This document shows, piece by piece, positions 26,893-48,294 of a stretch of DNA of 64,000 bases. The DNA lies in NCBI GenBank assembly GCA_963705305.1, contig OY970067.1, forward strand, positions 4,352,001-4,416,000, given 5' to 3'. Each line of letters starts with the position of its first letter. Position 1 is the first letter of the stretch. A model generated the notes under the pieces. The model worked only from the letters and a program-made list of their open reading frames with translations, searched no databases and was not told the DNA's origin. The position numbers and the translations under genes are program-made. Origin of the DNA: an uncultured Methylomirabilota bacterium (GTDB lineage Bacteria > Methylomirabilota > Methylomirabilia > Methylomirabilales > 2-02-FULL-66-22).

Positions 26893-29624
<2,732 letters not shown>

Positions 29625-30743: not shown

Positions 30744-31140
30744 CTACCGGAGGTGGGATCTTTCATTCTCTGAGTCTTGTAGGTCGGCAAGATCCGCGCC
30801 CACCATCATATGTACAAGTTCTTCGAATCCAACTCTCGGAGCCCAATCAAGAAGTCGCTTTGCCTTCGAGGCATCACCCAGGAGAAAGTCGACTTCAGTC
30901 GGGCGGAAGTAGCGCGGGCTGATTTCGATCAGGGAGCGTCCGTCCGGGCCAATCGCCTTCTCTTCAACCCCCGCCCCTTCCCACCGCAGCGGGAGGCCGG
31001 CGCGGGCGAATGCCAGCTCGCAGAACTCCCGCACGGAGTGGGCCTCGCCGATGGCGATGACGTAGTCGTCCGGCTCGGGTGCCTGGAGCATCATCCACAT
31101 GGCCTCGACATAATCGCCCGCGAATCCCCAATCCCGCTTG
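30744..31140 (-). pseudogene. gmd: Truncated 3' third of a second gmd copy
   Basis: [15 protein letters not shown]...[17 protein letters not shown]; diverged match to ~36420-36760; homology stops at 31140. Confidence 0.85.
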
Positions 31141-31163
31141 CGGCTCGGCCGCCTCGCCGATTT

Positions 31164-31192
31164 GGGGGACGTTGCGACATTATTGACTTTAT
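31164..31192. repeat. Conserved array site, type A
   Basis: GGGGGACGTTGCGACATTATTGACTTTAT. Confidence 0.9.
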
Positions 31193-31319
31193 TATGGGGC
31201 ACAGGGCAAAGGGCACAGAGCATAGCGCGAAGGGCACAGGGCCGGGGACAGAGGGCACGGACCACAGGACTACTGACGACTGACCACGGGACTACTGACT
31301 ACTGGCCATGTGGAACCTA

Positions 31320-31347
31320 GGGGACGTTGTAACCTTAATTACCTTTT
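31320..31347. repeat. Conserved array site, type B
   Basis: GGGGACGTTGTAACCTTAATTACCTTTT, preceded by GTGGAACCTA. Confidence 0.9.
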
Positions 31348-31481
31348 TGCGAAACCCGCGGGTCAAGTTCGAAATGCGAAATGAAGAACTCGTGTCTCAC
31401 GCCAAGATCGCCATTTCCAGTAGGCAGTAGGCAGAGGTCAGTAGTCCTGTATTCCACCCTCGCCCCTGCGACCTTTGCGTC

Positions 31482-31907
31482 TTAACGTGAGGAAAAGTTC
31501 GATCCGATCGCTGTCGTCGCACAGGATACAACGAACCGCGCGTCGTCGATGGCGCGTTGCGCATCCGCCCTCGTGTACTCCTCTGTGGGGATGAAATCGA
31601 TGTCCCCGTAGAAGGCGAACTCGCGCTCCTTCCGCAACCACCCCGAGATCTCCGCCAATCGCTCGACCTGGCCCGCCACCTCGCCGGGAAACCGGTCCCG
31701 GTACTCCAGCAGCATCTGCCCCACGTCGTGCCACTTGGGCGGCTCGACCCCGATGCCCCGGAGCATGCCCTTCAGCGCCAGCTCCACGACCTCCTGCGCC
31801 TCGCGCACCACATCTGAAAAGGCCTCGTCCTCCAGCAACACGGACAGGACCCTGAGGCGCTTCTGCGCCTTCGTGAGATAGCTCTTGGCCAGCGAGGTGT
31901 TCGTCAT
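31482..31907 (-). CDS. HEPN domain protein (pair 1)
   Basis: AQEVVELALKG.L...PPKWHDVG; coupled to the upstream MNT by an ATGA overlap. Confidence 0.85.
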   Translation of the reverse strand: MTNTSLAKSYLTKAQKRLRVLSVLLEDEAFSDVVREAQEVVELALKGMLRGIGVEPPKWHDVGQMLLEYRDRFPGEVAGQVERLAEISGWLRKEREFAFYGDIDFIPTEEYTRADAQRAIDDARFVVSCATTAIGSNFSSR

Positions 31908-32404
31908 AGCTCGAATACCTCGCCGGGCCGGTAATCCGGCTTCAGGTCCCAGAACCAGGCATTCCCCCGCCAGATGCGGCGCGCCCCCAGGCTCTCCAGC
32001 CGAGCCCGCAGCCGGCTGAAGGCCTGCCTCAAGAAGCCATCGCGATCAAACAGGATCCGCGCATCCTCGAGCATATCCAGGTACAGCAAGCTCCCCCGCT
32101 CTACCTCGGCGGGCGTCTTGAACACGGGGCTTACCGTTGTGGCCACACCGGCCACGCGGGCCTCCGCCAGCGCGGAGCCGAGGGCTTTCTCCACCATGGC
32201 AAACTCGGCCACGCGCGCCATCCTTCCGGCCGGCAGCCGTGCGGCCACGATCAGCACGTCCAGGTCCGAGTCCGGCCGCGGCGTCCCCCGCCCGACCGAT
32301 CCGAAGACCGCAAGGGCCACCAGGCGGTCGCCGTAGTGCTGCCGGCAGGCGGCAAGGAGGTCGCAGCAAAGCCGGTCAAATTGAGAGGCCAGCGAGATCA
32401 TCAC
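31904..32404 (-). CDS. Minimal nucleotidyltransferase (MNT) (pair 1)
   Basis: FGSVGRGTPRPDSDLD. Confidence 0.9.
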   Translation of the reverse strand: MMISLASQFDRLCCDLLAACRQHYGDRLVALAVFGSVGRGTPRPDSDLDVLIVAARLPAGRMARVAEFAMVEKALGSALAEARVAGVATTVSPVFKTPAEVERGSLLYLDMLEDARILFDRDGFLRQAFSRLRARLESLGARRIWRGNAWFWDLKPDYRPGEVFEL

Positions 32405-32426
32405 GCGTCCTCACCATCTGTGCTGA

Positions 32427-32494
32427 GGGGACGTTGTAACCTTAATTACCTTATTGCCAAGGGATGGGGGACGTTGCGACATTATTGACTTTAT
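32427..32494. repeat. Two adjacent array sites (type B 32427-32454, type A 32466-32494)
   Basis: GGGGACGTTGTAACCTTAATTACCTTAT then GGGGGACGTTGCGACATTATTGACTTTAT. Confidence 0.9.
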
Positions 32495-32548
32495 CGAGCA
32501 TTTCGAAGTTCGAAGTTCAGAATTGCCCCCCCCAGCCTTCCATCATGC

Positions 32549-32971
32549 CTACGGCCGCTCCAGCGCGCGCAGCACTTCCCTTTTGAACGCTTCGACCTCC
32601 GGCCACTTGCGCGTGGCCACCATGAAGACGATTTGATTGTCCACCACCCCGTACTCGTGCACGAGGATGTTGCGAAACCTTCTCATCGCGCGAATCGTGC
32701 CCGCGACCTCCGGTGAGATGATGTGCGCATCTTCCAATCTGGCGAACAGGTCCTCCTCCTCGCCGGGCAGGCCCAGGCGCAACCCGGCAACGAGCAGGTT
32801 GCATATATCCAGGACACACTCAACGGAGATCTGGAGGAGGCGCTCGACCGCGCGCCGCGTTGCAGGGTTCCCCATGTACCCAGAATAGTCTGCGGGGAGG
32901 ACCGCCTTGAGCTCGGCCTCGTAGCCGTGCAGCTCGTCCAGCTTTGCCAGGACGCGGTCACGATCCAGCAT
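32549..32971 (-). CDS. DUF86/HepT-type HEPN RNase (pair 2)
   Basis: MLDRDRVLAKL..., ERLLQ.SVE..LDI, RNILVHEY (Rx4HxY). Confidence 0.9.
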   Translation of the reverse strand: MLDRDRVLAKLDELHGYEAELKAVLPADYSGYMGNPATRRAVERLLQISVECVLDICNLLVAGLRLGLPGEEEDLFARLEDAHIISPEVAGTIRAMRRFRNILVHEYGVVDNQIVFMVATRKWPEVEAFKREVLRALERP

Positions 32972-33365
32972 GCGCCACCTGCTCGAGGTAGTAGCGATAC
33001 CTATGGCGGAAATCCTCAAACGCCTTCGCCGTCCGGTACGCCAACTCGTACAGGGCCTCCTCGTCCCGGCTGTACAGTACCCGGCCCTCCCGGAGAACGC
33101 GACGGCGAATGTAGAGCGGAAGCTGCTGGAAGACGCGAATGTCGAATCCTTCGGGTGTGGTCGCCAAGTACTCCAAACGCACCTCGGCTGCCGCAGCCCC
33201 CGTCCCACTGGTCCGGCATGGGTCGAGGACCAGGCAGACGTCCACATCCGAGCGGGGCCCCTGCTCTCCCCGGACACGGCTTCCGAAGAGCACCACCGCC
33301 AACAGGCGCGTGTCCGCTGCCGCTTTTTTGAGAAGGTTGTCGATCGAGGCGCTGTCAGACGTCAT
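32958..33365 (-). CDS. MNT/MntA-type nucleotidyltransferase (pair 2)
   Basis: FGSRVRGEQGPRSDVD. Confidence 0.9.
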   Translation of the reverse strand: MTSDSASIDNLLKKAAADTRLLAVVLFGSRVRGEQGPRSDVDVCLVLDPCRTSGTGAAAAEVRLEYLATTPEGFDIRVFQQLPLYIRRRVLREGRVLYSRDEEALYELAYRTAKAFEDFRHRYRYYLEQVAHAGS

Positions 33366-33489
33366 CTGGACCAGATAGGGGACCCGGCCGTTTCTGCGCT
33401 GTCAAGGCACATTCCTCCTCGCGATGCCGAGTCCTGAACGCATCTCACACCTGCTGCCTGCCGTCGTTCCCCCGGGACCGCTCCCGGAT

Positions 33490-33650
33490 GGTCTCTCACG
33501 CCCCACCGTAGTGGTCGCATCCGGCCTGCTCGCTGCCACCCGAGCGGCCTACCCGGCCTCGTCCGGGCTGCTGAGAGCGGGAGCGGCGCGCCAGGGTCCC
33601 CCGGCGGTCCCACCGGGCCGCCACGTTGCATGAATCGCGCTGCCAGCTCC
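33490..33650 (-). ncRNA. Putative bridge/seek RNA of the IS110 element
   Basis: Stem-TGCAACGT-hairpin-GGGGGAC-stem (target guides), then GGCCGGGT-hairpin...ACTAC (donor guides); RNA ends are approximate. Confidence 0.7.
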
Positions 33651-33683
33651 CCGGGGAAGACAGACGCTGTCCCGCCGGCCGGC

Positions 33684-34889
33684 TCAGCGGACCTGCCGCT
33701 GGAGCCCGCCCGTCCGGCGTGGGTCGTACGGGGTCCCGCTCCGCCACACGCCCCAGACGACCCGGAGCACTTTCGCCGCCAGTTCGACGATCGCCTTGAA
33801 GCCAGCGAAGCGGTCCCCCTGGCGCTTCGCTTTCAAGGCGGCGAGCCGGGCCCGCCCCGCGGCGGTCCGCGCCAGTCCCAGCGCCGCGTGGTACAGCGCC
33901 CAACGCAGAAGGCTGCGCCCGCACTTGGAGATTCGCGCCTGCCCCGCGAACTGCCCGGATTGCACCCGCACGATGTCCAGCCCCGCGAGCTTCCGGAGCT
34001 GGGAGAACTTCGTGAACCAGGCGATGTCCCCGATCTCGGCCAGGAGGATCGCGGCCACGGTCGGCCCGACCCCCGGGATCGTCCGGAGGAGCGCGTAGGC
34101 CGGGAGCCGCTCGGCGAGGGGCGTCAGGGCCTGCTCGACCGCGGCGGTGCGGGCCTGAACAGCATCGACCTGGGCCCCGAGGTCCGCACAGGCCGTGGCG
34201 AGCCCGACCGGCAGCCGTCCCTTCGCCACCGCTGGGCGCCCGGGGGCCGCCGGCTCCCAGGCCTGGAGCACCGCCGGCAGCTCCGCCCGCAGGCGGTTGG
34301 GCAGGGGCTCCCCCATCGGCCCGAGGGCCGGGCGGAGGGTCGTGCGCCAGCGCGCCTTGCAGGCCGCCAGCTCGCTCCGGGCCCGGCGGAGGCACTTGAC
34401 CAAGTGCCGCAACTCGACGCGGGGGCCATCGGGCCGGCTGTAGAACAGCACCTTCCCCTGTTCGAGGAGGTCGGCGCAGTTGGCGGCGTCCTTCCGGTCG
34501 CCCTTGTCCCAGGTCCCGTCCTGGGTCCGGCGGTTCCAGTAGGCCACGCTGCTGGAGAACAGGACGACGTCGGCGCCCTGCGTCTCCAGGAACACCGCGA
34601 GGGCCTGGTGGTAGGTCCCCGTGGGCTCGAGGCCACAGACCACCTCGCGGCACCCGGTGCTCCGCTGGGCCTGCTGGATCCGCGCCCAGAGCTGGGCGAA
34701 GCCCCGGGTGGTGTTCGGGATCGTGAGGGTGGGCACGACCACCCGGGTGTGGGCCTGCCGGAGGTGCACCACGTGTTCGACTTGGGCGACGTCGATCCCG
34801 ACCAGGAGGCGCTGGCGGTTGATGCGTAAGGTGGCCTTCAGCTCCCGGAACCGCTTGACACGCGTGGCATTGTCTCGCATCGTAGCCAT
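33684..34889 (-). CDS. IS110-family DEDD recombinase/transposase
   Basis: VGIDVA, GLEPTG.Y, KGDRKDA, TIPGVGP..AA..LAEIGD, QSG, ISKCG...LR. Confidence 0.93.
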   Translation of the reverse strand: MATMRDNATRVKRFRELKATLRINRQRLLVGIDVAQVEHVVHLRQAHTRVVVPTLTIPNTTRGFAQLWARIQQAQRSTGCREVVCGLEPTGTYHQALAVFLETQGADVVLFSSSVAYWNRRTQDGTWDKGDRKDAANCADLLEQGKVLFYSRPDGPRVELRHLVKCLRRARSELAACKARWRTTLRPALGPMGEPLPNRLRAELPAVLQAWEPAAPGRPAVAKGRLPVGLATACADLGAQVDAVQARTAAVEQALTPLAERLPAYALLRTIPGVGPTVAAILLAEIGDIAWFTKFSQLRKLAGLDIVRVQSGQFAGQARISKCGRSLLRWALYHAALGLARTAAGRARLAALKAKRQGDRFAGFKAIVELAAKVLRVVWGVWRSGTPYDPRRTGGLQRQVR

Positions 34890-35275
34890 GGGGTTCTTCC
34901 TCCTCTGTACGGGGTGAGTGGATGGCTCTCTGCACACCCCTACCAATAGCGAGGAAGAACCCCTTTTGGAACCTGCCATTTTCACCAGAAGGGGCCCAGA
35001 CTGTGGGAGTCTAGTCGCTGGTACCTGGTTCATGCGGGTAATACTACGCTGCGACATTATTGACCGTATTCTGGAGCATAGGGCGCAGGGCATGGCGAGG
35101 GCCTACGGCCCGAGAGAGGCGCGAGGCGGCCGGAGCGATCGCAAGCGCACCATTTCGAAGATCGAAATTGAAAGAGCTTGTCGTGGCGATCTTTGCGTGA
35201 GGCATCGGGCCCGTTCCTCATGCCACTTGGCACGAGAACCACGGAGGCGGCTGCGACGCCCAGGGCCCGACGCAT

Positions 35276-35533
35276 TCAGGCTGTCCTACGGGTAAGTGGG
35301 TATGCGTGGCGGACACCGATAAGCCGATCGATCGAAAGATCCTCATCGAGTGCCGGCCAGTGGATACCATACCCGACCGCTGAAATCTCGTAGTTCGCCC
35401 GTTGCTCTGGTGTCGCGTTGGCAAGCTGTGGAGAGTGCCGCGCGATGTCCACCTCGTAATCCTTCCCATCAACGCGGAGCCGCAGAATTGTCCCCTGCAA
35501 GCTGGCCACACTCACTTCGTGGGCCTTATCCAT
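35276..35533 (-). CDS. DUF2442 family protein (putative antitoxin)
   Basis: L.NATPEQR.NYEIS..GYGIHWPALDEDLSI. Confidence 0.85.
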   Translation of the reverse strand: MDKAHEVSVASLQGTILRLRVDGKDYEVDIARHSPQLANATPEQRANYEISAVGYGIHWPALDEDLSIDRLIGVRHAYPLTRRTA

Positions 35534-35783
35534 TTCGCTGCTCCTGAAATCGCTGCCATTCAGCGACAATGTATTCGAAGTGCGCAAAGATTATTCGCCT
35601 AACAGTTCGTTTATCGGCTGAACTCAAGTTGTACGCGTGCGCCTCGATCGCCTCATACCCGTCTGCGTCCAACCAATATTTCGCCTCAGCATTTCCTTTG
35701 CGGCAATGGACGTGCATCGGCTCATCCCGCTCATTCGCGTAAAAGAAAAACCGCCAGCCGAGGATGAGCAGGATTGTCGGCAC
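35526..35783 (-). CDS. DUF4160 family protein (putative toxin)
   Basis: PTIL...GWRFFFYANE..EPMHVH..KG.AEAK.WL. Confidence 0.85.
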   Translation of the reverse strand: MPTILLILGWRFFFYANERDEPMHVHCRKGNAEAKYWLDADGYEAIEAHAYNLSSADKRTVRRIIFAHFEYIVAEWQRFQEQRNG

Positions 35784-35844
35784 CTTACTCGCACGCAATT
35801 CGGTGATGGTTTACCACTTTATTGGCCACGGGGAAAGAAAAGGC

Positions 35845-35945
35845 CGCAGGAGCCCCTCTCGAATCAGCACCTCTGCCGCCCGGCGGGCTTCGTCTCCCCG
35901 CGCGAGTTCCCGCTGGATGGCGCCCCATCGGTCCCCGGGACTCAC
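35845..35945 (-). pseudogene. 5' stub of a HEPN gene (pair 3), truncated
   Basis: GTG overlaps the MNT stop; ELARGDEARRAAEVLIREGL resembles the first HEPN helix, then the similarity ends. Confidence 0.55.
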
Positions 35946-36277
35946 ACGGCCACCCCGTCACGCTCGATCTCGCGCGCCAGTCTGCGCCCACTCTGCCTGG
36001 GGGCCGCGAAGCCTTGCCGCGAAAGCACGAGAGGCGAGATGAGCACGTCGGTCTGCAGGAACACCTCGTAGGCCAGGTCGAAGATCCGCCGGCGAACCGG
36101 GAGGTCATCCGAGGCCACCACGACCAGCACATCCACATCCGAATCCGGTCCCCCCTCGCCGCGTGCCCGGGAGCCGAACACGGTGCCGGCCGCCTCCTGG
36201 TCGGATAGCTCACGGCGAACCCGCCCCACGAAACCCTGTACGGCCGCCCACTCTTCCCCGGTCAGCGACTGGCCCAT
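35942..36277 (-). CDS. MNT nucleotidyltransferase (pair 3)
   Basis: FGSRARGEGGPDSDVD...EIERDGV. Confidence 0.88.
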   Translation of the reverse strand: MGQSLTGEEWAAVQGFVGRVRRELSDQEAAGTVFGSRARGEGGPDSDVDVLVVVASDDLPVRRRIFDLAYEVFLQTDVLISPLVLSRQGFAAPRQSGRRLAREIERDGVAV

Positions 36278-36381
36278 AGCCTGTAGCCCCTCTTGCGCTC
36301 AAACGACCGGTGGCCCCTCGCTATTATAGCCATAATCCGGGGTGGGCGAAAGATCGGGAAGTAGGAAGCGAATTTTGGTCG

Positions 36382-37425
36382 CTAACATGCCACACGCTCA
36401 ACGGCGGCCGCATCCGCGTCGACCATCATCCACACCAGTTCTTCGAACCCAACTCGCGGGGCCCACCCAAGGACTCGTTTGGCCTTCGAGGCATCGCCCA
36501 AAAGAAAATCTACTTCTGTCGGGCGGAAGTAGCGCGGGTTGATTTCGATCAGGGTACGGCCGTCGGGGCCAACGGCCTTCTCCTCCACGCCCACCCCTTC
36601 CCACCGCAGCGGGATGCCGGCGCGGGCAAAGGCAAGCTCGCAGAACCCCCGCACGGAGTGCGCCTCGCCTGTGGCGATGACGTAGTCGTCCGGCTCGGGC
36701 GCCTGGAGCATCCTCCACATGGCCTCGACGTAGTCGCCCGCGAACCCCCAATCCCGCTTGGCGTCCAGGTTCCCGAGAGCCAGCCGGTCCTGGAGCCCCG
36801 CCTTGATCCGCGCCACCGAGCGGGTGATCTTCCGGGTGACGAATGCCTCGCCCCGCCGGGGGCTCTCGTGGTTGAAGAGGATCCCGTTGACCGCGAACAT
36901 CCCGTACGCCTCCCGATAGTTCCGGGTGATATAAAAGGCGTAGGCCTTGGCGGCGGCGTAGGGGCTGCGGGGGTAGAACGGCGTCGTCTCGCGCTGGGGC
37001 GTCTCCACCACCTTCCCGTACAGCTCTGACGAGGAGGCCTGGTAGAAGCGGGCGTTCAGATCCAGCTCGCGCATCGCCTCCAGCAGCCAGATCGTACTGA
37101 CCCCCGTCACCTCCGCGGTGTACTCGGGCACCTCGAAGGAGACCTTGACGTGGGACTGGGCCCCCAGATTGTAGATCTCGTCCGGCCGGACCAGCTTCAG
37201 CAGCCGGTTCAGCGACGAGGCGTCGTTCAGATCCCCGTACGCAAGATGCAACCGGACCTCGCGGATGGCGGGATCCTGGTACAGGTGGTCGATCCGCTCC
37301 CGGTTGAAGGACGAGGAGCGGCGCACCACCCCCCACACCTCGTACCCCTTGGCAAGCAGCAGCTCCGCCAGGTACGACCCGTCCTGCCCGGTGATGCCGG
37401 TGATCAACGCTCTCCTACCGCTCAT
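36382..37425 (-). CDS. gmd: GDP-mannose 4,6-dehydratase
   Basis: [46 protein letters not shown]. Confidence 0.96.
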
Positions 37426-37487
37426 TGGAAGATGCCCGCTCACTGGTTTATCCATCCTGCGTTACTCATTACACCGTGAAGGGGTCA

Positions 37488-37552
37488 GCCTCCGGCCCGG
37501 GTTCCACCCCGTAGGGGCTCCACCCCGGAGGGAGGGCCTACGGCCCGGAGGG
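37488..37552 (-). repeat. GC-rich palindromic REP/MITE-like element
   Basis: Reverse copy of CCCTCCGGGCCGTAGGCCCTCCCTCCGGGGTGGAGCCCCTACGGGGTGGAACCCGGGCCGGAGGC; also at ~48333, ~52788, ~54940, ~63736, partial at ~46685. Confidence 0.85.
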
Positions 37553-37756
37553 TGGTCAGTGGTCCTGCAATCCACCTTCCTATTCGACTTTCCATTGCGC
37601 CCCTTGCGTGAGAAAAGCCCGACTCCGGTCTCACGCCAAGATCGCAAAGCTCGCCAAGAAGGGCCCTCGTAAATCTCGAACACAACTGTGAACGTTGTTG
37701 ACTGTGTTGACTCGCGATTTGGAGGCAACGCCGTCGCCGTCCAACGACTGCACGAG

Positions 37757-38173
37757 TCAAAGGAGGCTGGCCACGGTGCCGGCGAAGGCCCGCAGGTCCT
37801 CCAGGCTCCGGTGCAGGACATCGTACACCTGCCCATAGTCGATCTTCCAGTACACGTGCACCAGGAGGTTGCGGAACCGCGCCATCTGCTGGAGGCGTCC
37901 GGCCAAGTCCGCCGGCAGGAGACCAGCGTCCTTCAGGATGGCGAAGCACTCCGCGTATTCCTCGGGGACCTTCTGCAGGCGTCGCGCGGAGACGTGGTAG
38001 CAGAGCGCCAGCGCGGCCTCGATCGCCACCAGAAGCCGATAGCATGCCAGATCCAGCGTGTCCTGGTCCGCCAGGAACCGCTCGCGCGGCAGACCGCGAA
38101 GTCGCTCCAGGCGCTGCACCGACTCCACGATCTCGGCGCAGCGCGCCCGCACGAGATCCGGACTGAGGTTCAT
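37757..38173 (-). CDS. DUF86/HepT-type HEPN RNase (pair 4)
   Basis: RFRNLLVHVY; ATGA overlap with the MNT. Confidence 0.9.
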   Translation of the reverse strand: MNLSPDLVRARCAEIVESVQRLERLRGLPRERFLADQDTLDLACYRLLVAIEAALALCYHVSARRLQKVPEEYAECFAILKDAGLLPADLAGRLQQMARFRNLLVHVYWKIDYGQVYDVLHRSLEDLRAFAGTVASLL

Positions 38174-38592
38174 GCGGCAAAGGACTCCACGGTTGCCTGC
38201 CGCAGCAGCGGCGCGATGTCCAGATAGCGCGAGGCGGTGCGTTCGACCACCTCTGCCAGAACGGCCTCGTCCCGGCACAGCACGAGCCTGCCCCGCAGGA
38301 CATGGTACAGGAACGACAGCGGGGCCGCGTTCACGACGCGGACATCCAGCAGAACCCGCAGGAGACGCTGCAGCCGCGCGCCCAGGTCCAGCTCGTAGTC
38401 CATCGGGCTCCTGCCGGCCAGCAGCTCTGGCCTCACCCACACCGCCACATCAACGTCGCGGAACGGGAGGGGCTCCACAAACGAGCCGTACAGGTAGGCG
38501 AAGGACACGCCAGGATCGTCCTCCAGCGCAGAAGCCAAGCGCTCTCGGATCTCTCTTCGCCGGTCCTCGTCCATGTGATGCAGCCGGGTCAT
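38170..38592 (-). CDS. MNT nucleotidyltransferase (pair 4)
   Basis: FAYLYGSF....FRDVDVAV, DVRVVNAAP. Confidence 0.88.
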   Translation of the reverse strand: MTRLHHMDEDRRREIRERLASALEDDPGVSFAYLYGSFVEPLPFRDVDVAVWVRPELLAGRSPMDYELDLGARLQRLLRVLLDVRVVNAAPLSFLYHVLRGRLVLCRDEAVLAEVVERTASRYLDIAPLLRQATVESFAA

Positions 38593-38765
38593 CTCAACTC
38601 CATACGTCGAGCGTCGATCGAATCCCCCGTTTGCACATTCTGCAGCTTGCGCCTTCCATGGCCATCCTCTATGCGTCCAGGTCCCGGTAACATCCGATTC
38701 ACTTGACCCTCACGCGTTGGCGCTCCATCTCACCCGCTCCCCGTTTCCCCGGCTCGCCTCAATCT

Positions 38766-38794
38766 GGGGGACGTTGTAACCTTAATTACCTTTT
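38766..38794. repeat. Conserved array site, type B
   Basis: GGGGGACGTTGTAACCTTAATTACCTTTT. Confidence 0.9.
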
Positions 38795-38934
38795 TGCGAA
38801 GCGCACGGGGCAAAGCGCAGAGGGCATGGCGCAAAAACCGGTGGTCAGAGGTCGGAACGTCGGTGGTCAGGAGTCAGCTTGCGTCTGAAGGCTGACACCT
38901 GATTCCTGGAACTGGCGATCTCTGGATAGAAACA

Positions 38935-39360
38935 TCAAATGAGAGACCTGATGGCTTGACAAAGCTTCCTGAAGGAGGGCTCAGACTCACGGAGGAATCG
39001 GTCGATGGATCGCCAGCGGACATCCTGATATTGATGCGCCAGGATGTTTCTCAGGCCCGCCCAGCGCGAAATATCCTCCCCGAATTCCGGCTCGAAATAT
39101 GGGAGCGAGCCGAGCTCCCTCAGTGCTTCCCTATAGGTGGATGGTATGGTCCGCCCGTCGCATACCAAAAGGACCTTGGCGATGTCGATGGCACAGTTCA
39201 CCAGATTTTCGATCCACCGCTCCAGATTCCTCCGCAGATCCCGATCCGACTGGTAGGCTTTCCAATCCATGCCCGCGAACCGAGGAAAATCTGCCAGCTC
39301 CGCTTCCAGAAAGTCCACGTACCGGATCAGGCGCTCCCGATCCTCAGGCAGCAGCGGCAT
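38935..39360 (-). CDS. DUF86/HepT-type HEPN RNase (pair 5)
   Basis: ERWIEN.VN..IDIAK, LRNILAHQY. Confidence 0.9.
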   Translation of the reverse strand: MPLLPEDRERLIRYVDFLEAELADFPRFAGMDWKAYQSDRDLRRNLERWIENLVNCAIDIAKVLLVCDGRTIPSTYREALRELGSLPYFEPEFGEDISRWAGLRNILAHQYQDVRWRSIDRFLRESEPSFRKLCQAIRSLI

Positions 39361-39787
39361 GCTTCCGCAGCTCCTTGAGCCTCCAGAAGCTCTCGGACCA
39401 CTCGCGGAAATCCGCGGCTTCGGAGCTGGTGCGCACCAGGAAGTCAAGATACAGTCCGCGATCCTTGATTACGAGCGAAACGCCCCGCAGAGCCGCCTCG
39501 GCCACCCTCGCGGGCGCCCGATTGAGGACGATCAGGTCCACCTCTCGTCCAACGATCTCCTCGATGCCGGCGCAGAGTGCCTCTTCTCTTTCCGGATCCT
39601 CAAAAAGCCCCTCCTCTCTCTCAGCGGAGGGAGATCGGAGGTACACGGCGACATCGAGATCCGACTCCACGCCCTCGCGATCCTTCACCCAAGAGCCAAA
39701 CAGGAACGCCATGGCTACGTCTTCCTGCCGTTCGAGCAGGCGACTAAGCTCTGAAATGGCCCGGGACTTTTCGTTCGAGGAAATCAT
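39344..39787 (-). CDS. MNT nucleotidyltransferase (pair 5)
   Basis: FLFGSWVKDREGVESDLD, VDLIVLNRAP. Confidence 0.9.
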   Translation of the reverse strand: MISSNEKSRAISELSRLLERQEDVAMAFLFGSWVKDREGVESDLDVAVYLRSPSAEREEGLFEDPEREEALCAGIEEIVGREVDLIVLNRAPARVAEAALRGVSLVIKDRGLYLDFLVRTSSEAADFREWSESFWRLKELRKHAAAA

Positions 39788-39811
39788 GATTTGGGGGACC
39801 CGTGGAACCTA

Positions 39812-39839
39812 GGGGACGTTGTAACATTAATTACTTTAT
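39812..39839. repeat. Conserved array site, A/B hybrid
   Basis: GGGGACGTTGTAACATTAATTACTTTAT; an extra GGGGGAC at 39793. Confidence 0.88.
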
Positions 39840-39896
39840 GCCGAACGGCACAGAGCAGAGAGCAGAAGGAGATTCGAAATTCGAAATTGAATACCT

Positions 39897-40346
39897 TCAC
39901 GGTTCGTCACTCGAGAGGATTCCCATCTCATCGCGTGCCTGGAAGAACTCCCGAACGGCGCTGACGATCCGGCCCGCCGCCGCCAGCGCCCGCTCCGCTG
40001 TTTGCCGGTCATAGAATTGGTGAGGGTACCCCGCGGGCAGCCCGTTCGGATAGCGGGATGGAATGTAATGCAGGTCCAGCTCACGTGCGAAATCCAGCAG
40101 GCCTGTCACCACATCCGCCATCTTGGCCGCCTCCTGAACCATTTCCACCAGCGAATGGCTCAAGAGCGCCTCCCTTCTCGCCCCTTGATAGTACAGGAAG
40201 GACTTCAAGGCCTTTTCCCCGGCCTGCTGCGCAAGGAAACAGGCCGTATCGTGGAAGCCTCCCTCGATATTCCAGGCCACCGCCTTCAGGTCGAAGGTCG
40301 CCTGGTGAAACCAGCGCCGGGCCTCGGCCTGTGCCTTACCGGCCAT
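39897..40346 (-). CDS. HEPN domain protein (pair 6)
   Basis: ACFLAQQAGEKALK, SHSL, LDLHYIPSRYP. Confidence 0.9.
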   Translation of the reverse strand: MAGKAQAEARRWFHQATFDLKAVAWNIEGGFHDTACFLAQQAGEKALKSFLYYQGARREALLSHSLVEMVQEAAKMADVVTGLLDFARELDLHYIPSRYPNGLPAGYPHQFYDRQTAERALAAAGRIVSAVREFFQARDEMGILSSDEP

Positions 40347-40671
40347 GGACCAGGACCCCCTCTTCCTGGATCATCTCCACAAACGCGTTCCCTTCCTCGC
40401 GCATCCGCCCGAACTCCTCCGGGGTGTACACGAGAATGTCCACGCCTCCCACCCCCGCCGGCAGGAGGCCTGCGACCTTCCGCAATCGCTCGAAGAAGGA
40501 ATCCAACGTCCGCTTGACAATCACGAGATCGAGGTCGCTCAGGATATCCGCCTCTCCCCGCGCGTAGGATCCGAACACGTAGATCCGATCGGCACCATAC
40601 GGCGTGAGGGCCTCGAGGAGACGGGCGACCTTCGGAGTATTGCGGATGTCGTTCACGCTCTCAGGACACAT
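40336..40671 (-). CDS. MNT nucleotidyltransferase (pair 6)
   Basis: FGSYARGEADILSDLD, DILVYTPEE. Confidence 0.9.
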   Translation of the reverse strand: MCPESVNDIRNTPKVARLLEALTPYGADRIYVFGSYARGEADILSDLDLVIVKRTLDSFFERLRKVAGLLPAGVGGVDILVYTPEEFGRMREEGNAFVEMIQEEGVLVHGR

Positions 40672-40687
40672 CGTTCATCATGGCTTT

Positions 40688-40716
40688 GGGGGACGTAGCG
40701 ACATTATTGACTTTAT
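40688..40716. repeat. Conserved array site, type A
   Basis: GGGGGACGTAGCGACATTATTGACTTTAT; the following ~40 bp are also near-identical to 31193-31232. Confidence 0.9.
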
Positions 40717-40882
40717 TGTGGGGCACAGGGCAGAGGGCACAGAGCATAGCGCGAAGGGCGAAGGGAAAGTCGGAATTGGAATTTCGAAGTTCGAAATGAA
40801 GAACTCTTGCCTCGCGCCAAGATCGCCAAGACAAGCATCCCAGAGGTTCGGGCCCCTGATCCGATATGTGGGACATGGAGGC

Positions 40883-41266
40883 TCACCGCTCGCGCGACTC
40901 CAGTCGCGTGACCCGCTCGTTCAAGGAGGCGTAGTTGCCTTCCAGCTCCTGGAGCCGTTGTTCGAGCTGAGCGTAGGAGAAGCGGATGGCCGCACGCGTC
41001 TCGGCGAACCCCTCCTCCACCTTCCGCTCCAGCCGGTCGAGTCGTTGATTCGTCTCGGCGAGGCCCTCAGCGAGCTGGCGCACGTCATCACGCACTGCCT
41101 CGACGAGGACCCCCATGTGCCGGCGGGTTTCCTCCTGCTGCGCCCGGACCTCTTCCTTTGCGGCCACCTGTTCGAACCGGCGATCCACCTGTTCGAACCG
41201 GCTGTCCACTTCGTCGAACTTCCGCCCGATGAACTCGGTCAGCCGGCTGTACTCATCATTCGTCAT
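40883..41266 (-). CDS. Small coiled-coil hypothetical protein
   Basis: Heptad repeats (FEQVDRRFEQV, LEQRLQELE); GGGAG RBS. Confidence 0.7.
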   Translation of the reverse strand: MTNDEYSRLTEFIGRKFDEVDSRFEQVDRRFEQVAAKEEVRAQQEETRRHMGVLVEAVRDDVRQLAEGLAETNQRLDRLERKVEEGFAETRAAIRFSYAQLEQRLQELEGNYASLNERVTRLESRER

Positions 41267-41387
41267 CGGCTACTCCCGATCGCACAGGGCATGGGGCAGA
41301 GGGCAAAGGGCATAGCGCGAAGGGCAGAGAGCGCGGACCACGGGACCACTGACCACCGACTCCCGGCACTTAGGGGATTACCCCGCA

Positions 41388-41801
41388 CTAGATCCATCCC
41401 ATCACGGCCGTCTTGAACCGGGTGAAATCACCGAGGTGCTCCCGGAGGGTGCCCAGGACCATGCCGGGGTCTATCCGGGCATACTCGTGAACGATCAGGT
41501 TGCGGAATCCGCTCATCCGAATCATGGCATCCCGTTGGGTTGAGTCCAGGAGGCCAGCCTCCGCCAGGACGGTGAAGGATTCGGCATGGGTCGCAGGCAC
41601 CCGCAGTCTTCGGTCCGCAATGACGTGGTTGGCGATGTCAAGGCAGACCTCGATGGCCAACTGGAGGGTCCGCTCTACAATGCGCTGGGTCCTCCAATCC
41701 TTGCGGTACTCCTCGACCGTGACATTCCGGTACTCCGATGCCTGATCCACGTACTGATCCAGGTCCGCCAGCTTCCGGAGGATCAGGTCCCGGTCAACCA
41801 C
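41388..41801 (-). CDS. DUF86/HepT-type HEPN RNase (pair 7)
   Basis: VDRDLILRKL, ERTLQLAIE..LDIA, GFRNLIVHEY. Confidence 0.9.
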   Translation of the reverse strand: MVDRDLILRKLADLDQYVDQASEYRNVTVEEYRKDWRTQRIVERTLQLAIEVCLDIANHVIADRRLRVPATHAESFTVLAEAGLLDSTQRDAMIRMSGFRNLIVHEYARIDPGMVLGTLREHLGDFTRFKTAVMGWI

Positions 41802-42216
41802 CGGCGAACCTCCGGGCCAGGAGCCGGTGCTCAAACGCGCGGAAGTCGAAAAACTCGCGCAGTGCCAGGGACTCGAACCGGTGGCGGCAGAATGGATTGC
41901 GGTCGCAGATGACCTCGCGGTTCAGGAGGATCCGTCCTACCAGCGCCGATGGCGCCGTGTTCAGGACGACCAAGTCCACCTCGTCCGTCCCCAGATGCGC
42001 GGTGATCGCCCCGACGATCTCGAACCGCTGCTCCGCTGCGTCCACTGCCGGATCAAGGTACACCGCCACGTCGACATCGCTGAGCGGGCCGACCCGGCCG
42101 CGGGCCGCGCCCCCAAAGAGGTACCCGAACACGACACCGGGGCACGTCTCCAGCACCCGGCCGAGGGTGCTCAGCCGCTCGCGGATGTTTGCAGGCAGAG
42201 GCTTCTCTCGGATCAT
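41794..42216 (-). CDS. MNT nucleotidyltransferase (pair 7)
   Basis: YLFGGAARGRVGPLSDVD (GG variant of GS), VDLVVLNTAP. Confidence 0.88.
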   Translation of the reverse strand: MIREKPLPANIRERLSTLGRVLETCPGVVFGYLFGGAARGRVGPLSDVDVAVYLDPAVDAAEQRFEIVGAITAHLGTDEVDLVVLNTAPSALVGRILLNREVICDRNPFCRHRFESLALREFFDFRAFEHRLLARRFAGG

Positions 42217-42450
42217 GATACCCTTGCGGCGCAGGGCAGAGGGCAAAGAGCAAAGACCAGGGATCAGGGGTCAGGAATCAGTGGTCAGAGGTCAGGATGT
42301 CAGGCGTCAGCCTCCAGACAGGGTTGCTCTACTTTGCGTGCTTTGCGTGAGGAGAGCTCGGACCTAGTCTCACGCTCAGATCGCTAAGCTCGCCAAGAAG
42401 GCCCCTTTTCACTTTCGAAGTTCGAATTTCGCATTTCGAATTTGCTCTCG

Positions 42451-43194
42451 CTACTTGTTATGTTCCTCCTCACCCCGCCCCTGATTCTGCGGGTGCTGCG
42501 CTTCGTGGCCCTGCGGCCTCTGCTCGTGCTGCTGCCCGCGGACGCTCTCCTGCGGCTGTCTCGGCGGCTGACCCTGAGGCGGCCTCTGCTGCTCTCGCTG
42601 CTGGACCTGGGGCGGCCGCTGGTGCTGCTGCGGCTCGGGCCGCACCTGAGGCTGCCGGACCTCGGGCTGCGGCTGGTACTGGCGCTGCCGCTGCTGTTGC
42701 ACGGCCTTCCGCTCTTGCGGCGATGGAGGACGATAGCCCTGGACGCCCCATGTCCCCTGCTTTTCCCAATGCTGCGTCGTATGCCAGTTCTTCCAGTTCT
42801 GCTGAAGCTGCCCGTACGGAATCCGCTCGTAATTCCAGCGGTGTCCCTCCCAGGCATGGTCCCTGTAGAAGGCCCGCCAATTGGGGTCGACGCCATAATA
42901 GAAGCTGGGGACACGCTTGTAGTAATGCCAGCCCCGGTCGTAGTAGTGCGAGCGGTACCACCGGCCATCCCACATACGCCACCACCACCCGTTCCAGAAG
43001 AACACGTCCGCGGCGATCTCGGGGACAACGTACACATCGTTCGCCCCGGGAAGCACGATGACGCTCGGGGGCGCCGCAAACGTGATGGCCGGCGGCAGGG
43101 GGATATTCACGGTGACCGACACCTGCGCACCGGCGGACAGCGGAACAGTAACTGCCACCGCCAAGAGCAATGCTCCAAACACAACCTTGTTCAT
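42451..43194 (-). CDS. Secreted Trp/Tyr-rich protein with Gln/Pro-rich tail
   Basis: Signal peptide ending AGA-Q, VFFWNGWWWR..DGRWY, low-complexity C-terminus. Confidence 0.7.
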   Translation of the reverse strand: MNKVVFGALLLAVAVTVPLSAGAQVSVTVNIPLPPAITFAAPPSVIVLPGANDVYVVPEIAADVFFWNGWWWRMWDGRWYRSHYYDRGWHYYKRVPSFYYGVDPNWRAFYRDHAWEGHRWNYERIPYGQLQQNWKNWHTTQHWEKQGTWGVQGYRPPSPQERKAVQQQRQRQYQPQPEVRQPQVRPEPQQHQRPPQVQQREQQRPPQGQPPRQPQESVRGQQHEQRPQGHEAQHPQNQGRGEEEHNK

Positions 43195-43579
43195 GCTGGT
43201 GACTCCCTTGTCATTGGCAACCTAGGAACATAGGCGAGGAACACTGCCTCACGCCAAGATCGCCAAGCACGCCAAGAAGAACCTTCCTACTATTCGAATT
43301 CCCGGACCGAATCTGGTCTCACGCAAAGATCGCCAAGATCGCAAAGGAGAACCCTTCAGTTTCGAAATTCGAACTTCGAAATTCGAATTTTCCCCGGCAA
43401 CCTTTGCGGCTTTGCGTGAAAAATTCGGGCCGTGTCCCACGCCGGCCTCGCCGCACCGCGTCGATGGGGGTCAGGCCTTGATAATTTGCTTTCTCGATTG
43501 CGTTCCGCGAGCGGGTGAGAGCCAGCCAATACGGCTCAAGAGATCGGGTAGGCCACGGAACACAGAGGGAAATCCGCAT

Positions 43580-43978
43580 CTAGGAAGAACCGAGCCGTCC
43601 CTGGATCGATGCGAGCAGACGATCCATCACCGTCCGATACTCGGACAGTTTTCGATGAATGGACGCGGCGACGGCCTCGATGTACGTGTGGGCAGTCAGG
43701 TTCCGGTCGTCCGTCATCTCCAGACACAACTCCGCATCATCGACCGTCAGGAGACCGGTCTTTAAGGCTTCCCGAAAGCACTGCTTGGGGGAATTGCAGA
43801 CGACGCCTTCCCGCACTTCGAGGTACGCCTTGAGCGCCTACCAGACGCTCTCGAACGTGTATTCGAAGCGCTGGATCGAGGCGTCGCGAACAATCACGCT
43901 GAACGGCAATCCCAGCGCCTCGGCCAGCGAGGCCAGCGCCTTCTGGGCGGCAGTCAGCCTGACCGCTAATTGCTCCAC
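43580..43978 (-). pseudogene. HI0074-type (NTase substrate-binding) HEPN gene with an internal TAG (pair 8)
   Basis: RDASIQRFEYTFESVW*ALK...SPK.CFREA...DRNLTAHTY; stop at 43838-40. Confidence 0.82.
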
Positions 43979-44268
43979 AGAAGGTTCCCCTGCTCTGTCG
44001 CTCGCCGACGGAGGTCGTCCGAGGCCGTACGCAGCTCTACCAGGTCGACCGTGAGCGGAATATTCGACTCTTCGAGCATTTCGCGGGCAAGACCGAGCCG
44101 CCGGGCGATGTCCGCCGGCGCATCCACGGCGAGGTCAAAATCCGAGGCGGCATGCGGCCGGCCGCCGGCCCTGGATCCGAACAGGTACACGCGGCACTTC
44201 GTGTCCCCCAGACTCCCCCGGAGGATCCGAAGGATCTCTGCGAGGTACCGATCCTGGCGGGAACTCAT
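43966..44268 (-). CDS. MNT nucleotidyltransferase (pair 8)
   Basis: YLFGSRAGGRPHAASDFDLA, LEES.IP..VDLV. Confidence 0.9.
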   Translation of the reverse strand: MSSRQDRYLAEILRILRGSLGDTKCRVYLFGSRAGGRPHAASDFDLAVDAPADIARRLGLAREMLEESNIPLTVDLVELRTASDDLRRRATEQGNLLWSN

Positions 44269-44480
44269 TTGGGGCACAGGGAGCATAGCGCACGGAGAAT
44301 GGCGCATAGAGTAAAGCCAGGGGGAGAGCTTGGCTCCCTGCTCTGTGCGCTGGGCCCTGTGCGCACCTCTCAGCCCCCGGGCAGGCTTGCGCCCTCTCAG
44401 TTACATAAAGGACATGTAAAGAGGGGGAATCCAGCTAGATTCGAAATTTGAAATCCGAATTTCGAAATCCGAATTTCGAA

Positions 44481-45077
44481 TTAAGATGTAGCTTTCAAAG
44501 TTACGATCTGCTCGCGTGAAGCGCCGCGCGCCACCAGCTCCTGGATCTTGGCCTGCCACCCTTCCTCGGGCTCGAAGGTCGCCACGACGATCCGGTCGAA
44601 CTCCCCCGGGATCAGCTCTTCCAGTCCTCGCACCCGGCGGCCCAGGAACTCCCCGCCCGCCTCGGTCTCAAAAACCTCTCCCAGTTCCAGCCCGCTTTCC
44701 TTGAGGCAGAGATAGGCAACTTCGGCCGCCTCTCCCGTCCCGTAGAAGGCTACTCGCCGGCTCCCGTCATCCCCCAGGGGGGCTAGGGCCCGGCGAAGCT
44801 GCTGGCGAGCCTCCCGATAGCGCTCGAAAGTCCGTGTCATGTAGATATACGTGAGGCGGGACTTTTCCGCCATTCCCTTGGGAGTGAGCAAGTAGTTGAG
44901 GCGATTCGGCCGGACACGCATGATTCGGATAAAGCCTTTCATCGCCAGGCGCCGTAGGTACAGGTTGGCCAGGCTTACCGCCATGCCCAAGTCACCGGCA
45001 AGGTCCCGCTGGGTCAGCCGATTATTCTCGGCGACGGCCTGCAAGATCTCGAGATCCCGGCTGCTCTGCTCCCGCAT
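44481..45077 (-). CDS. EPS-locus-associated MarR-type winged-helix regulator with Rossmann-like C-terminus
   Basis: TQRDLA..LG...LAN.YL.RL..KG, YLLTPKG.AEKSRL, VAFYGTGE.AE. Confidence 0.82.
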   Translation of the reverse strand: MREQSSRDLEILQAVAENNRLTQRDLAGDLGMAVSLANLYLRRLAMKGFIRIMRVRPNRLNYLLTPKGMAEKSRLTYIYMTRTFERYREARQQLRRALAPLGDDGSRRVAFYGTGEAAEVAYLCLKESGLELGEVFETEAGGEFLGRRVRGLEELIPGEFDRIVVATFEPEEGWQAKIQELVARGASREQIVTLKATS

Positions 45078-47901: not shown

Positions 47902-48294
47902 CTATCTCGAACGGATGATCCAATCCTCTGGGTGCGCGATCATTACGACGAGCTTTCCGATTATCTGATCATACTCTTTCATGAGGGCATCAGCGTCGGC
48001 AGGTAACAAGTAACCACACGCTTTGGCGAAACTTATCCAGGTTTGGGTCTCCGCGCCCTCAGCCTCAGAATCGCAGAGTTTACTGACAAAGGCGGCTTGA
48101 TAGCGTCGCTTTCTCCACCCCTCAGCAATGTTCGAACAGACGGAGCGAGACGCTCGCCTGATCTGATCGGTCAGAGAGAACATTTCCTCTCTTGGGAATT
48201 TCTTCGAAAGCTCAAAAATCCGCATTGCGGCCTTGAATGCCTGCTGATAAACGACCAAGTCTTCATGACTTTCGATCCTTCGGCGAACCACCAT
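47902..48294 (-). CDS. Four-helix-bundle protein (23S rRNA IVP family)
   Basis: HEDLVVYQ, FPREEMFSLTDQIRRASRSVCSNIAEGWRKR, EGAETQTW. Confidence 0.9.
   Translation of the reverse strand: MVVRRRIESHEDLVVYQQAFKAAMRIFELSKKFPREEMFSLTDQIRRASRSVCSNIAEGWRKRRYQAAFVSKLCDSEAEGAETQTWISFAKACGYLLPADADALMKEYDQIIGKLVVMIAHPEDWIIRSR

Follow-up and report, generated by a model that had tools for sequence, protein, structure and literature searches.

The window analyzed here is a stretch of 64,000 nucleotides (positions 4,352,001 to 4,416,000 of contig OY970067.1, assembly GCA_963705305.1) from an uncultured Methylomirabilota bacterium, the genome of which is 5.65 Mb in size, is contained in a single contig and has 66 % G+C. 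At 31,164 to 44,480 the window carries an array of toxin-antitoxin modules, mostly pairs of a minimal nucleotidyltransferase (MNT) gene and a HEPN-class partner gene, and a 28-bp site recurs between the modules. By its sequence, this site is identified as the terminal inverted repeat (TIR) of a TIRtron, an element which encodes a RAYT-like HUH/Y1 transposase of the TIRYT type. It is not a new recombination site and belongs to a known but little-studied transposon-like family. A first-pass annotation, made from the letters of the DNA, had interpreted the locus as a gene-capture or shuffling array with a recombination site of its own. The present analysis favors another reading, in which orphan ends of TIRtrons probably colonised a pre-existing toxin-antitoxin island and now serve as portable rearrangement repeats and as the target of an IS110-family element. 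Coordinates below 64,000 are those of the window and larger ones those of the genome, unless another contig is named.

Eight orphan copies of the site were found in the window, four of variant A (GGGGACGTTGCGACATTATTGACTTTAT) and four of variant B (GGGGACGTTGTAACCTTAATTACCTTTT), each only 28-30 bp long. Start positions of GGGGACGTTG, exact or with one mismatch, are 31165, 31320, 32427, 32467, 38767, 39812 and 40689, always on the + strand. The eighth copy is split, and the copies are as follows.

31165..31192, + strand: orphan TIR A (GGGGACGTTGCGACATTATTGACTTTAT); its terminus faces a 5'-truncated gmd gene; identical to the right end of the A-type TIRtron
31320..31347, + strand: orphan TIR B (GGGGACGTTGTAACCTTAATTACCTTTT); 'empty' junction, where only heptamer arrays separate it from the A copy at 31165
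32427..32454, + strand: orphan TIR B; 22 nt upstream of the MNT start at 32404
32467..32494, + strand: orphan TIR A; in tandem with the B copy, 12 nt away
33378..33383, + strand: split A-type TIR, outer stub GGGGAC; 12 nt upstream of the MNT start at 33365
35046..35069, + strand: split A-type TIR, inner part ACGCTGCGACATTATTGACCGTAT
38767..38794, + strand: orphan TIR B; 174 nt upstream of the MNT start at 38592
39812..39839, + strand: orphan TIR B with 3 mismatches; 24 nt upstream of the MNT start at 39787
40689..40716, + strand: orphan TIR A with 1 mismatch; 17 nt upstream of the MNT start at 40671

The earlier proposal that one site recurs in a single orientation was borne out, the copy split between 33378-33383 and 35046-35069 included. 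Its GTCCCC end, read on the coding strand, also lies close before the MNT starts at 32404, 33365, 39787 and 40671 as claimed, at 22, 12, 24 and 17 nt. The 'variant GTGCCCC' reported before 44268 is the end of a heptamer-repeat array and no site. The site is situated upstream of five of the eight MNT genes and of the truncated gmd; the other three modules lack it. At junctions which lack the site, the heptamer array reaches the start codon, while at the others the site has the appearance of a clean ~30-bp insert. Scanning of the genome with a 23-nt degenerate pattern (up to two mismatches) gave 31 matches against 0 for the reversed control. Elsewhere in the genome, A and B copies adjoin xylose-isomerase-like, RidA-like, adenosine-deaminase-like and dehydrogenase genes, as named on visual inspection of their translations.

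Complete elements established the identity of the site. Inverted repeats led by GGGGACGT and lying 1,043-1,114 bp apart enclose open reading frames (ORFs) of 327-346 amino acids which begin with MPR(G/Q)PRLDAPG..HHVM.RG. A protein search of the genome retrieved 13 full-length TIRYT copies (45-67 % identity to the query, itself one of them) and 11 fragments. Repeats of the GGGGACGT type or near to it were seen by eye in the flanks of all 13 genes, and a scripted flank search recovered the upstream repeat for 12 of 12 elements and the downstream one for 10 of 12. The HUH and Y...NP motifs are kept in every one of the 12 aligned proteins, the A-type protein included, and a conserved C-terminal block is shared by all 12 paralogues. 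The profile PF01797 (Y1_Tnp) scored above its cutoff of 23 bits in the D-type (27.7 bits) and B-type (31.7 bits) proteins, while NF047646 (REP-associated tyrosine transposase) reached 48-51 bits, under its cutoff of 80.

The A-type element occupies 1466802-1467877 (1,076 bp), is bounded by inverted A-type sites and encodes a RAYT-like protein of 343 amino acids with intact HUH and tyrosine motifs; its gene (1466837-1467832) lies 2.9 Mb from the window. Orphan A is identical to the right end of this element over 28 nt, and all 10 orphan A matches reported by BLAST cover only the terminal 23-30 nt of the element. An HUH/Y1 gene flanked by the same site, which the first-pass annotation had suggested to look for, is therefore present, and the proposed trans-acting recombinase is upheld in that the site belongs to a mobile-DNA enzyme encoded at this distance. 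For variant B, the protein search and the flanks of the 13 genes revealed no transposase gene in this genome. The complete B-type element was found only in relatives, on a metagenome contig (L012, 604-1681) and in a related metagenome-assembled genome (L001). As its transposase is not in the genome, B copies cannot be mobile here now.

In the genome, 123 copies of the exact 10-mer GGGGACGTTG were counted, compared to 7-54 for nine control 10-mers, and about 85 of the 123 copies are followed by an AT-rich stretch of ~18 nt, which distinguishes at least eight families. The proposal of a new site peculiar to the array cannot be kept, as the site is the TIR of a known element type with this genome-wide range of families. 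In each TIR, a 10-nt terminus common to the families, (T[A/G])GGGGACGT[T/A]G, is joined to two boxes of ~9 bp in direct repeat that are specific to the family. The boxes read GACATTATT/GACTTTAT in family A, AACCTTAAT/TACCTTTT in family B and, to take one further family, TAGACTTAA/TAGACTTAT. A C-terminal DnaA_C-like helix-turn-helix probably reads these boxes, as the 9-bp periodicity fits a domain that binds 9-mers in DnaA. The match of the B-type protein (L012) to Bac_DnaA_C is weak (E 6e-4, 20 bits against a cutoff of 31.5). In most elements TGCTAnnnT or a close variant was seen by eye immediately interior to the gene-proximal TIR, at a distance of 17 nt from the terminus TTG; in our reading this TTG as -35 and TGCTAnnnT as extended -10 form a predicted inward promoter for the transposase. 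The 13 paralogues of this single genome come with 13 distinguishable end sequences (e.g. 1466802-1467877, 4273689-4274755, 5462777-5463890).

Outer flanks of some full-length elements (481051-482031, 502081-503061, 738535-739458, 2525704-2526684) carry tandem duplicates of the terminal ~12-14 nt. The duplicated unit consists of a few flank bases and GGGGACG, and may have been left by an insertion into an older terminus or beside it. A similar doubled terminus also precedes the MNT start at 39787 in the window and was seen at the orthologous junction of a relative (G016).

In the available portions of the two papers concerned, TIRtrons and their TIRYT enzymes are described as having GGGG-led non-palindromic TIRs and dispersed TIR-only families, some of them clustered (Di Nocera, De Gregorio & Rocco 2013, PMC3733652), and TIRYT is classified as subclass 2.1 of TnpA-Y1 class 2, with a DnaA_C-like domain and present in about 15 % of strains (Quentin et al. 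2018, PMC6006769). The elements studied here resemble them in the ~330-aa RAYT-like HUH/Y1 gene with a predicted C-terminal helix-turn-helix, the GGGG-led non-palindromic TIRs, the dispersed TIR-only families and the several divergent paralogues per genome, each with a TIR of its own. They differ in that the orphans are co-oriented with the genes of toxin-antitoxin islands, flush with start codons and capped by heptamers, and in that the TIR resolves into a shared terminus and two ~9-bp boxes; none of these four features was found in the same portions of PMC3733652 and PMC6006769.

One copy of the site is itself a target of insertion:

33384..35045, - strand: IS110-family insertion sequence (IS) inside the TIR terminus; transposase 33684-34889, 401 amino acids

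This element of 1.66 kb, which splits the copy at 33378/35048, matches PF01548 (4.6e-17) and PF02371 (8.9e-22), and its transposase contradicts the earlier statement that the window holds no recombinase. Three further copies were present in the genome (2109477-2111154, 5100672-5102349 and 2414143-2415804), two of them identical and one 82 % identical. All four copies of this genome are inserted at ...ACGT | IS | (GT)CCCC in a GGGGACG-type terminus. All nine copies of relatives, from five other genomes of the genus (loci L019-L027), are likewise in TIR termini, which belong to several TIR families. The insertion point is thus fixed in 13 of 13 copies examined from six genomes, in an element without terminal inverted repeats, and this lineage of IS110 therefore targets the conserved end of the site. 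In the three identical copies, the left flank departs from the canonical terminus by one base. IS110 and IS1111 elements have a DEDD-type transposase and no inverted ends, and some of them target ends of Tn21-type transposons, attC sites or REPs (repetitive extragenic palindromes); IS110 recombinases guided by a bridge RNA are also known. The element found here is similar in its DEDD-type IS110 transposase and in its fixed position within a repeated sequence, and different in that its target is the terminus of a TIRYT repeat. No description of IS110 insertion in a TIRYT terminus was found, although no literature search was dedicated to it.

Orientation of the sites is strict. In the window all eight copies have GGGG on the + strand, opposite to the genes, which occupy the - strand. 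At 4.3207-4.3401 Mb lies a second toxin-antitoxin island, with MazF, HTH_37, DUF433/DUF5615 and MNT/HepT genes; it has 13 of 13 copies in the opposite sense, with Pfam-positive genes on the + strand, the strand on which its ORFs were scanned. Both islands are on one replichore (skew minimum near 1.8 Mb, maximum near 4.12 Mb), so the orientation follows the genes and not replication, and replication-strand bias was ruled out as its cause. In the outer flanks of 85 sites of all families, the neighboring gene points away in 33 cases and towards the site in 27, with none in 25; this was obtained with a crude GC3-based classifier, the random control of which consists mostly of positions inside genes, and it supports only the absence of a strong superfamily-wide bias.

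Rearrangement at the sites was observed in the second island. It contains a ~15-kb segmental duplication (4318659-4323895 against 4333480-4340183) in three blocks of 99.8-99.9 % identity, split by non-homologous segments, the starts of which lie at a TIR A and 4 nt past the terminus of a TIR B. One MNT/HepT cassette together with one TIR is present in one copy of the duplication only, between two direct A sites, and the single-TIR version is a clean chimera of both flanks. A cassette present or absent between direct TIRs indicates that rearrangement does happen at the sites. The insertion/deletion is flanked by 55 identical nt (TIR and heptamers), for which ordinary homologous recombination suffices, and a RecA-type and a transposase-mediated route are indistinguishable in this case. 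Outside the duplication no cassette was found in two places, and none is common to both islands; together with the sufficiency of the 55-nt repeat for the sole precise insertion/deletion, this speaks against a gene-capture array. Logan contigs from three DNA runs of one study were also inspected, X1 covering the region in short contigs at a depth of 2-7. One contig joins 31446 to 37553 and two join spacer to spacer; joints inside similar spacer repeats may come from other loci or strains, and they were not used as evidence.

The comparison with relatives separated the array from the site. MNT/HEPN arrays with the same kind of regulator and heptamer-rich spacers, and without the site, were found in three genomes (G020:C6, G016:C16, G010:C21); these arrays are also beside sugar genes, and their heptamer arrays have other units and no TIR. 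As similar arrays exist without it, the site does not build the array. The claim that it organises a gene-capture array fails on the same ground, and also on the three modules without site and the sites beside metabolic genes. In G006:C37 no array is present between gmd and the next conserved gene, which are ~1 kb apart compared to 8.7 kb here, and the orthologous junction of G016 has only decayed termini. The A/B pattern (up to two mismatches) was detected in 5 of 20 other genomes of the genus, with 1-4 copies each, and in none of 20 genomes from six other families of the order. The exact pattern gave one record in a scan of genome contigs and five loci in a metagenome scan. The same architecture, a terminus facing a small gene pair with heptamers inside, was observed at L011, L013-L015 and G020:C5. 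The four metagenome loci, which have another TIR variant, carry DUF433/DUF5615, DUF7718/DUF5647 and MNT genes. In G020:C5, RadC follows one site at 208 nt, and an antitoxin/Fic pair follows another immediately. Conserved genes of the relatives are ~70-80 % identical, which is too diverged for a comparison of empty and filled sites or of order base by base.

Toxin-antitoxin islands of this type are thus a genus-wide feature that does not depend on the sites. In the favored history, single TIRtron ends probably dispersed into the junctions of such an island in a REP-like manner, in trans. The sites, with the adjoining heptamer arrays, would then act as portable direct repeats between which cassettes may be deleted, duplicated or swapped, with or without catalysis by the transposase. 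They are also a specific landing pad of the IS110-family element.

Several points weigh against this history. We know of no mechanism that copies a single non-palindromic 28-bp end, and the absence of a B-type transposase from the genome counts against it as well. Random dispersal predicts neither the strict co-orientation (21 of 21 copies in two islands) nor a terminus flush with the next start codon, and both features fit a cassette-linked or regulatory role better. In 12 of the 27 TIR pairs listed, both members have the inner flank (19-400 nt) in common and homology breaks off 0-4 nt outside the terminus, which is expected if the terminus is the joining point. The A-type protein has no match in Pfam at E 0.001. 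GGGGACGT agrees at six of eight positions with GGGGWSAS, the consensus reported for most TIRYT TIRs in the available portions of the two papers, which likewise contain no demonstration for any TIRYT of binding, cutting or moving a TIR (PMC3733652, PMC6006769).

The polarity would be best explained if the array were a cassette platform driven by the Y1 enzyme, in which a unit of gene pair, spacer and TIR is excised as a one-site circle and re-inserted at another site. TIRYT acting on single-stranded DNA could cut two neighboring termini, because all TIRs of the array are on one strand; the models are integron cassettes, which move at attC, and IS608, which moves by 'peel and paste'. Such a platform is doubtful. 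It would account for the co-orientation in the window (8/8) and in the second island (13/13), for the homology of the 12 pairs ending at the terminus, and for the outer flank alone being common to 2 of the 27 listed pairs (4325319 B with 4326676 A, 149 nt; 4383320 with 4391812). The cassette with one TIR that is present or absent within the duplication, the 'empty' junction at 31192-31320, the repetition of the architecture with a different TIR variant in metagenome loci and G020, and the intact A-type enzyme of the genome also agree with it. Similar arrays of relatives do without the site, however, as do three of the eight modules; no cassette occurs twice outside the duplication, and RecA could have produced the one insertion/deletion from its 55 identical flanking nt. 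Moreover, A and B stand in tandem, an arrangement not left by site-specific exchange, B has no enzyme in this genome, and to our knowledge no Y1 enzyme acts on ends that are not hairpins. Its more specific form is likewise doubtful; here the co-oriented orphan TIRs and a TIRYT acting in trans would constitute a single-strand 'peel-and-paste' platform and an HUH analogue of the integron, and the circles would each carry a defence or toxin-antitoxin gene pair, a heptamer spacer and one TIR. If it were true, the 13 TIRYT/TIR families would be orthogonal specificities read through the two 9-bp boxes.

Closeness of the sites to start codons raises the question whether orphan TIRs have been co-opted and kept as outward promoters, operators or short leaders of the downstream operons, which is quite unlikely. 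The terminus is 12-24 nt from four MNT starts, with no Shine-Dalgarno sequence seen by eye between them in three; in three cases elsewhere, also judged by eye, it ends just upstream of the Shine-Dalgarno sequence of a metabolic gene, and the orientation is tied to genes. Against this, a promoter and terminator scan found nothing at the sites; it gave 2 sigma-70-type matches in 15 kb, neither at a TIR, and shuffled sequences gave 2.0. The predicted -35 role of the terminus TTG fits an inward and not an outward promoter. Across all families the outer-flank genes were about as often directed towards the site as away from it (27 and 33 of 85, with none in 25, by the crude classifier), and only decayed termini are left at the orthologous G016 junction. 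The family-specific part varies between families, as expected for binding of the transposase. Very unlikely is the origin of each orphan from a whole TIRtron that lost its gene and other end by random deletion: the 11 transposase-gene fragments, several inverted TIR pairs 263-800 bp apart in other families and the tandem partial termini flanking several full-length elements speak for it, but all 10 orphan A matches stop at 23-30 nt, none of the 24 TIRYT matches is in the window, random deletion should leave ragged lengths and both orientations, and the site looks as if ~30 bp had been cleanly inserted where a heptamer array ends and a gene begins.

Other known classes of repeated sites were also considered. 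By DNA folding, the minimum free energy of 7 of 7 sites was 0 to -1.0 kcal/mol on both strands, weaker than the means of shuffled sequences. The site contains no dyad, its internal repeats being direct and not inverted, and no inverted partner of it was found within the junctions. A/B copies are AT-rich, with 61-89 % A+T in positions 11-28. As the sites do not fold, they are neither attC-like nor REP-like. An attC site, which is an imperfect hairpin of 55-141 nt in its single-stranded form, was ruled out for want of a fold. The dif and pdif sites have two inverted Xer-binding arms of ~11 bp around a ~6-bp spacer; a dif site was excluded for lack of fold and dyad, as judged against this definition. 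The possibility raised earlier, that the sites would turn out to be known attC or dif sites, did not come true, no hairpin or dyad being present. A CRISPR repeat was ruled out because there is no regular array and the spacers are genes, and REP/REPIN sequences because the sites are AT-rich, unstructured singlets in one orientation. An E-value search of 29-47 kb with Rfam found nothing at the sites and one chance-level match (sR14, E 0.24). No integrase-type domain was found among the 42 ORFs of 27-49.6 kb, a result that covers this part only, the rest of the genome not having been searched for IntI.

Likeness to integron cassette arrays and to attC clusters without integrase is nevertheless seen in the co-oriented, small and mostly promoter-poor units, many of them toxin-antitoxin pairs, with a repeated site after each and the next gene starting a few bases after the site. 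Unlike them, the window has no tyrosine-recombinase integrase or attI, the site is 28 bp long and unstructured, and the enzyme is of the HUH/Y1 type. In the pdif modules of Acinetobacter plasmids, 28-bp sites in alternating orientation bracket small modules, toxin-antitoxin pairs among them, and the recombinase is encoded elsewhere. The window shares with these the 28-bp sites bracketing small modules, toxin-antitoxin pairs included, and a recombinase encoded elsewhere, and differs in the direct internal repeats and the single orientation of its sites. In the REP/RAYT system and REPINs, as described in the available portions of two papers, a low-copy, domesticated-looking Y1 enzyme goes with cognate short extragenic repeats, one family per paralogue; a REP is palindromic and rich in GC, its 5' tetranucleotide is conserved, and it is as an inverted doublet that REPs are mobile (PMC2817692, PMC3116915). 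The pairing of a Y1 enzyme with cognate short repeats and the separate repeat family of each paralogue are alike, while the sites of the window do not fold and are singlets in one orientation.

The gene content of the array was analyzed by a Pfam search over the same 42 ORFs. The features are given below from low to high coordinates.

30744..31142, - strand: second gmd, 3' fragment (Pfam profile positions 219-332 of 332)
31482..32404, - strand: MNT (31904-32404) and HEPN (31482-31907) pair; Pfam
32549..33365, - strand: MNT (32958-33365) and HepT (32549-32971) pair; Pfam, Rx4HxY
35276..35798, - strand: DUF4160 (35526-35798) and DUF2442 (35276-35587) pair; Pfam
35942..36277, - strand: MNT, its partner only a stub downstream; Pfam
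36382..37455, - strand: gmd, intact (GDP-mannose 4,6-dehydratase); Pfam
37757..38592, - strand: MNT (38170-38592) and HepT (37757-38173) pair; Pfam, Rx4HxY
38935..39787, - strand: MNT (39344-39787) and HepT (38935-39360) pair; Pfam, Rx4HxY
39897..40671, - strand: MNT (40336-40671) and HEPN (39897-40346) pair; Pfam
40883..41266, - strand: coiled-coil protein gene, no TIR upstream
41388..42246, - strand: MNT (41794-42246) and HepT (41388-41834) pair, no TIR upstream; Pfam, Rx4HxY
42451..43194, - strand: gene with a signal-peptide-like N-terminus, without Pfam family
43580..44307, - strand: MNT (43966-44307) and HI0074-type NTase_sub_bind pair, no TIR upstream; Pfam
44481..45077, - strand: winged-helix regulator (HTH_24/MarR-like) at the head of the array; Pfam

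All eight MNT genes are on the - strand and have a Pfam match, and a HEPN-class gene is situated downstream of each (two PF05168 HEPN, four PF01934 HepT, one NTase_sub_bind of the HI0074 type and one stub). This part of the first-pass annotation was correct, as was its mention of DUF4160/DUF2442, coiled-coil and gmd genes and of a secreted gene, if the latter is taken as the one with the signal-peptide-like N-terminus. Seven of eight MNT proteins possess GS/GG...DxD. By motif search, Rx4HxY is present in all four HepT genes and in the HI0074-type gene, and a regular-expression match was obtained in one of the PF05168 HEPN proteins (HEPN6) and not in the other (HEPN1). In MntA/HepT, a type VII toxin-antitoxin system, a minimal nucleotidyltransferase gene is followed by the gene of an Rx4HxY HEPN RNase, with overlapping stop and start codons. 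The type is defined by an MNT protein of PF01909/PF18765 carrying GSx10DxD, followed by HepT/HEPN with Rx4-6H; the pairs would be classed in it, and they appear as ordinary pairs except for the one with a stub partner and the one broken by a stop codon. The latter is the NTase_sub_bind partner of the last MNT, the frame of which is continuous apart from an in-frame TAG at 43838-43840; this HI0074-type gene is likely a pseudogene.

The gmd fragment is 87 % identical over 349 nt to positions 36412-36760 of the intact gmd, and it marks the low-coordinate end of the array, where it breaks off ~20-30 nt away from a TIR A terminus. As this truncated gmd shows, genes can also be destroyed through events at the sites. 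Recombination in gmd may have brought about the acquisition or duplication, as a block, of the 5.2 kb which separate the fragment from the intact gene. Two genes for '23S rRNA intervening sequence proteins' (PF05635, four-helix-bundle; 29220-29624 and 47902-48294) are scattered among the flanking sugar-nucleotide and Wzz genes, and a homologue was observed at the same place in G006.

Spacers of the array are largely tandem arrays phased at 7 nt, with units like GGGCACA, TTCGAAA and GGTCAGT, and recall the short tandem heptamer repeats of cyanobacteria. Two kinds of spacer were located as follows.

Heptamer spacers: 31194-31300, 32499-32528, 38798-38853, 39847-39899, 40718-40809, 41270-41353, 42224-42279, 42408-42454, 43355-43401, 44271-44326, 44437-44480
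Hairpin spacer module: 37588-37680, 42327-42419, 43248-43337, 31365-31413, 40780-40836

Period-7 arrays are concentrated at 4.25-4.45 Mb of the genome. Of 96 TIRs, 10 have such an array next to their inner side and 4 next to their outer side, compared to about 1 % at random positions. The hairpin module follows several cassettes, consists of a GCGTGAG / CTCACGC hairpin and CTTGGCG-type repeats, has copies in many accessory regions and may be a terminator. At 37480-37580, upstream of gmd, a GC-rich repeat of ~70-100 nt with internal palindromes was found, with at least 12 further copies mostly at 4.288-4.417 Mb; it is a separate family, possibly REP-like.

TIRYT enzymes and TIRtrons are common and yet without demonstrated activity, and this genome offers a convenient natural experiment on them. 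Its 13 paralogues with 13 ends suggest a specificity code made of a shared terminus and two 9-bp boxes, a question which the 2018 survey, in its available portion, left open. Orphan ends stand with strict polarity at module boundaries, a recent gain or loss of a cassette has taken place exactly between two of them, and a whole IS110 lineage is specialised on the TIR terminus. Should the transposase not join termini, the locus would be nothing out of the ordinary, an accessory island in which repeats seed rearrangement; should it join them, this would represent a second, integrase-free way to build cassette arrays.

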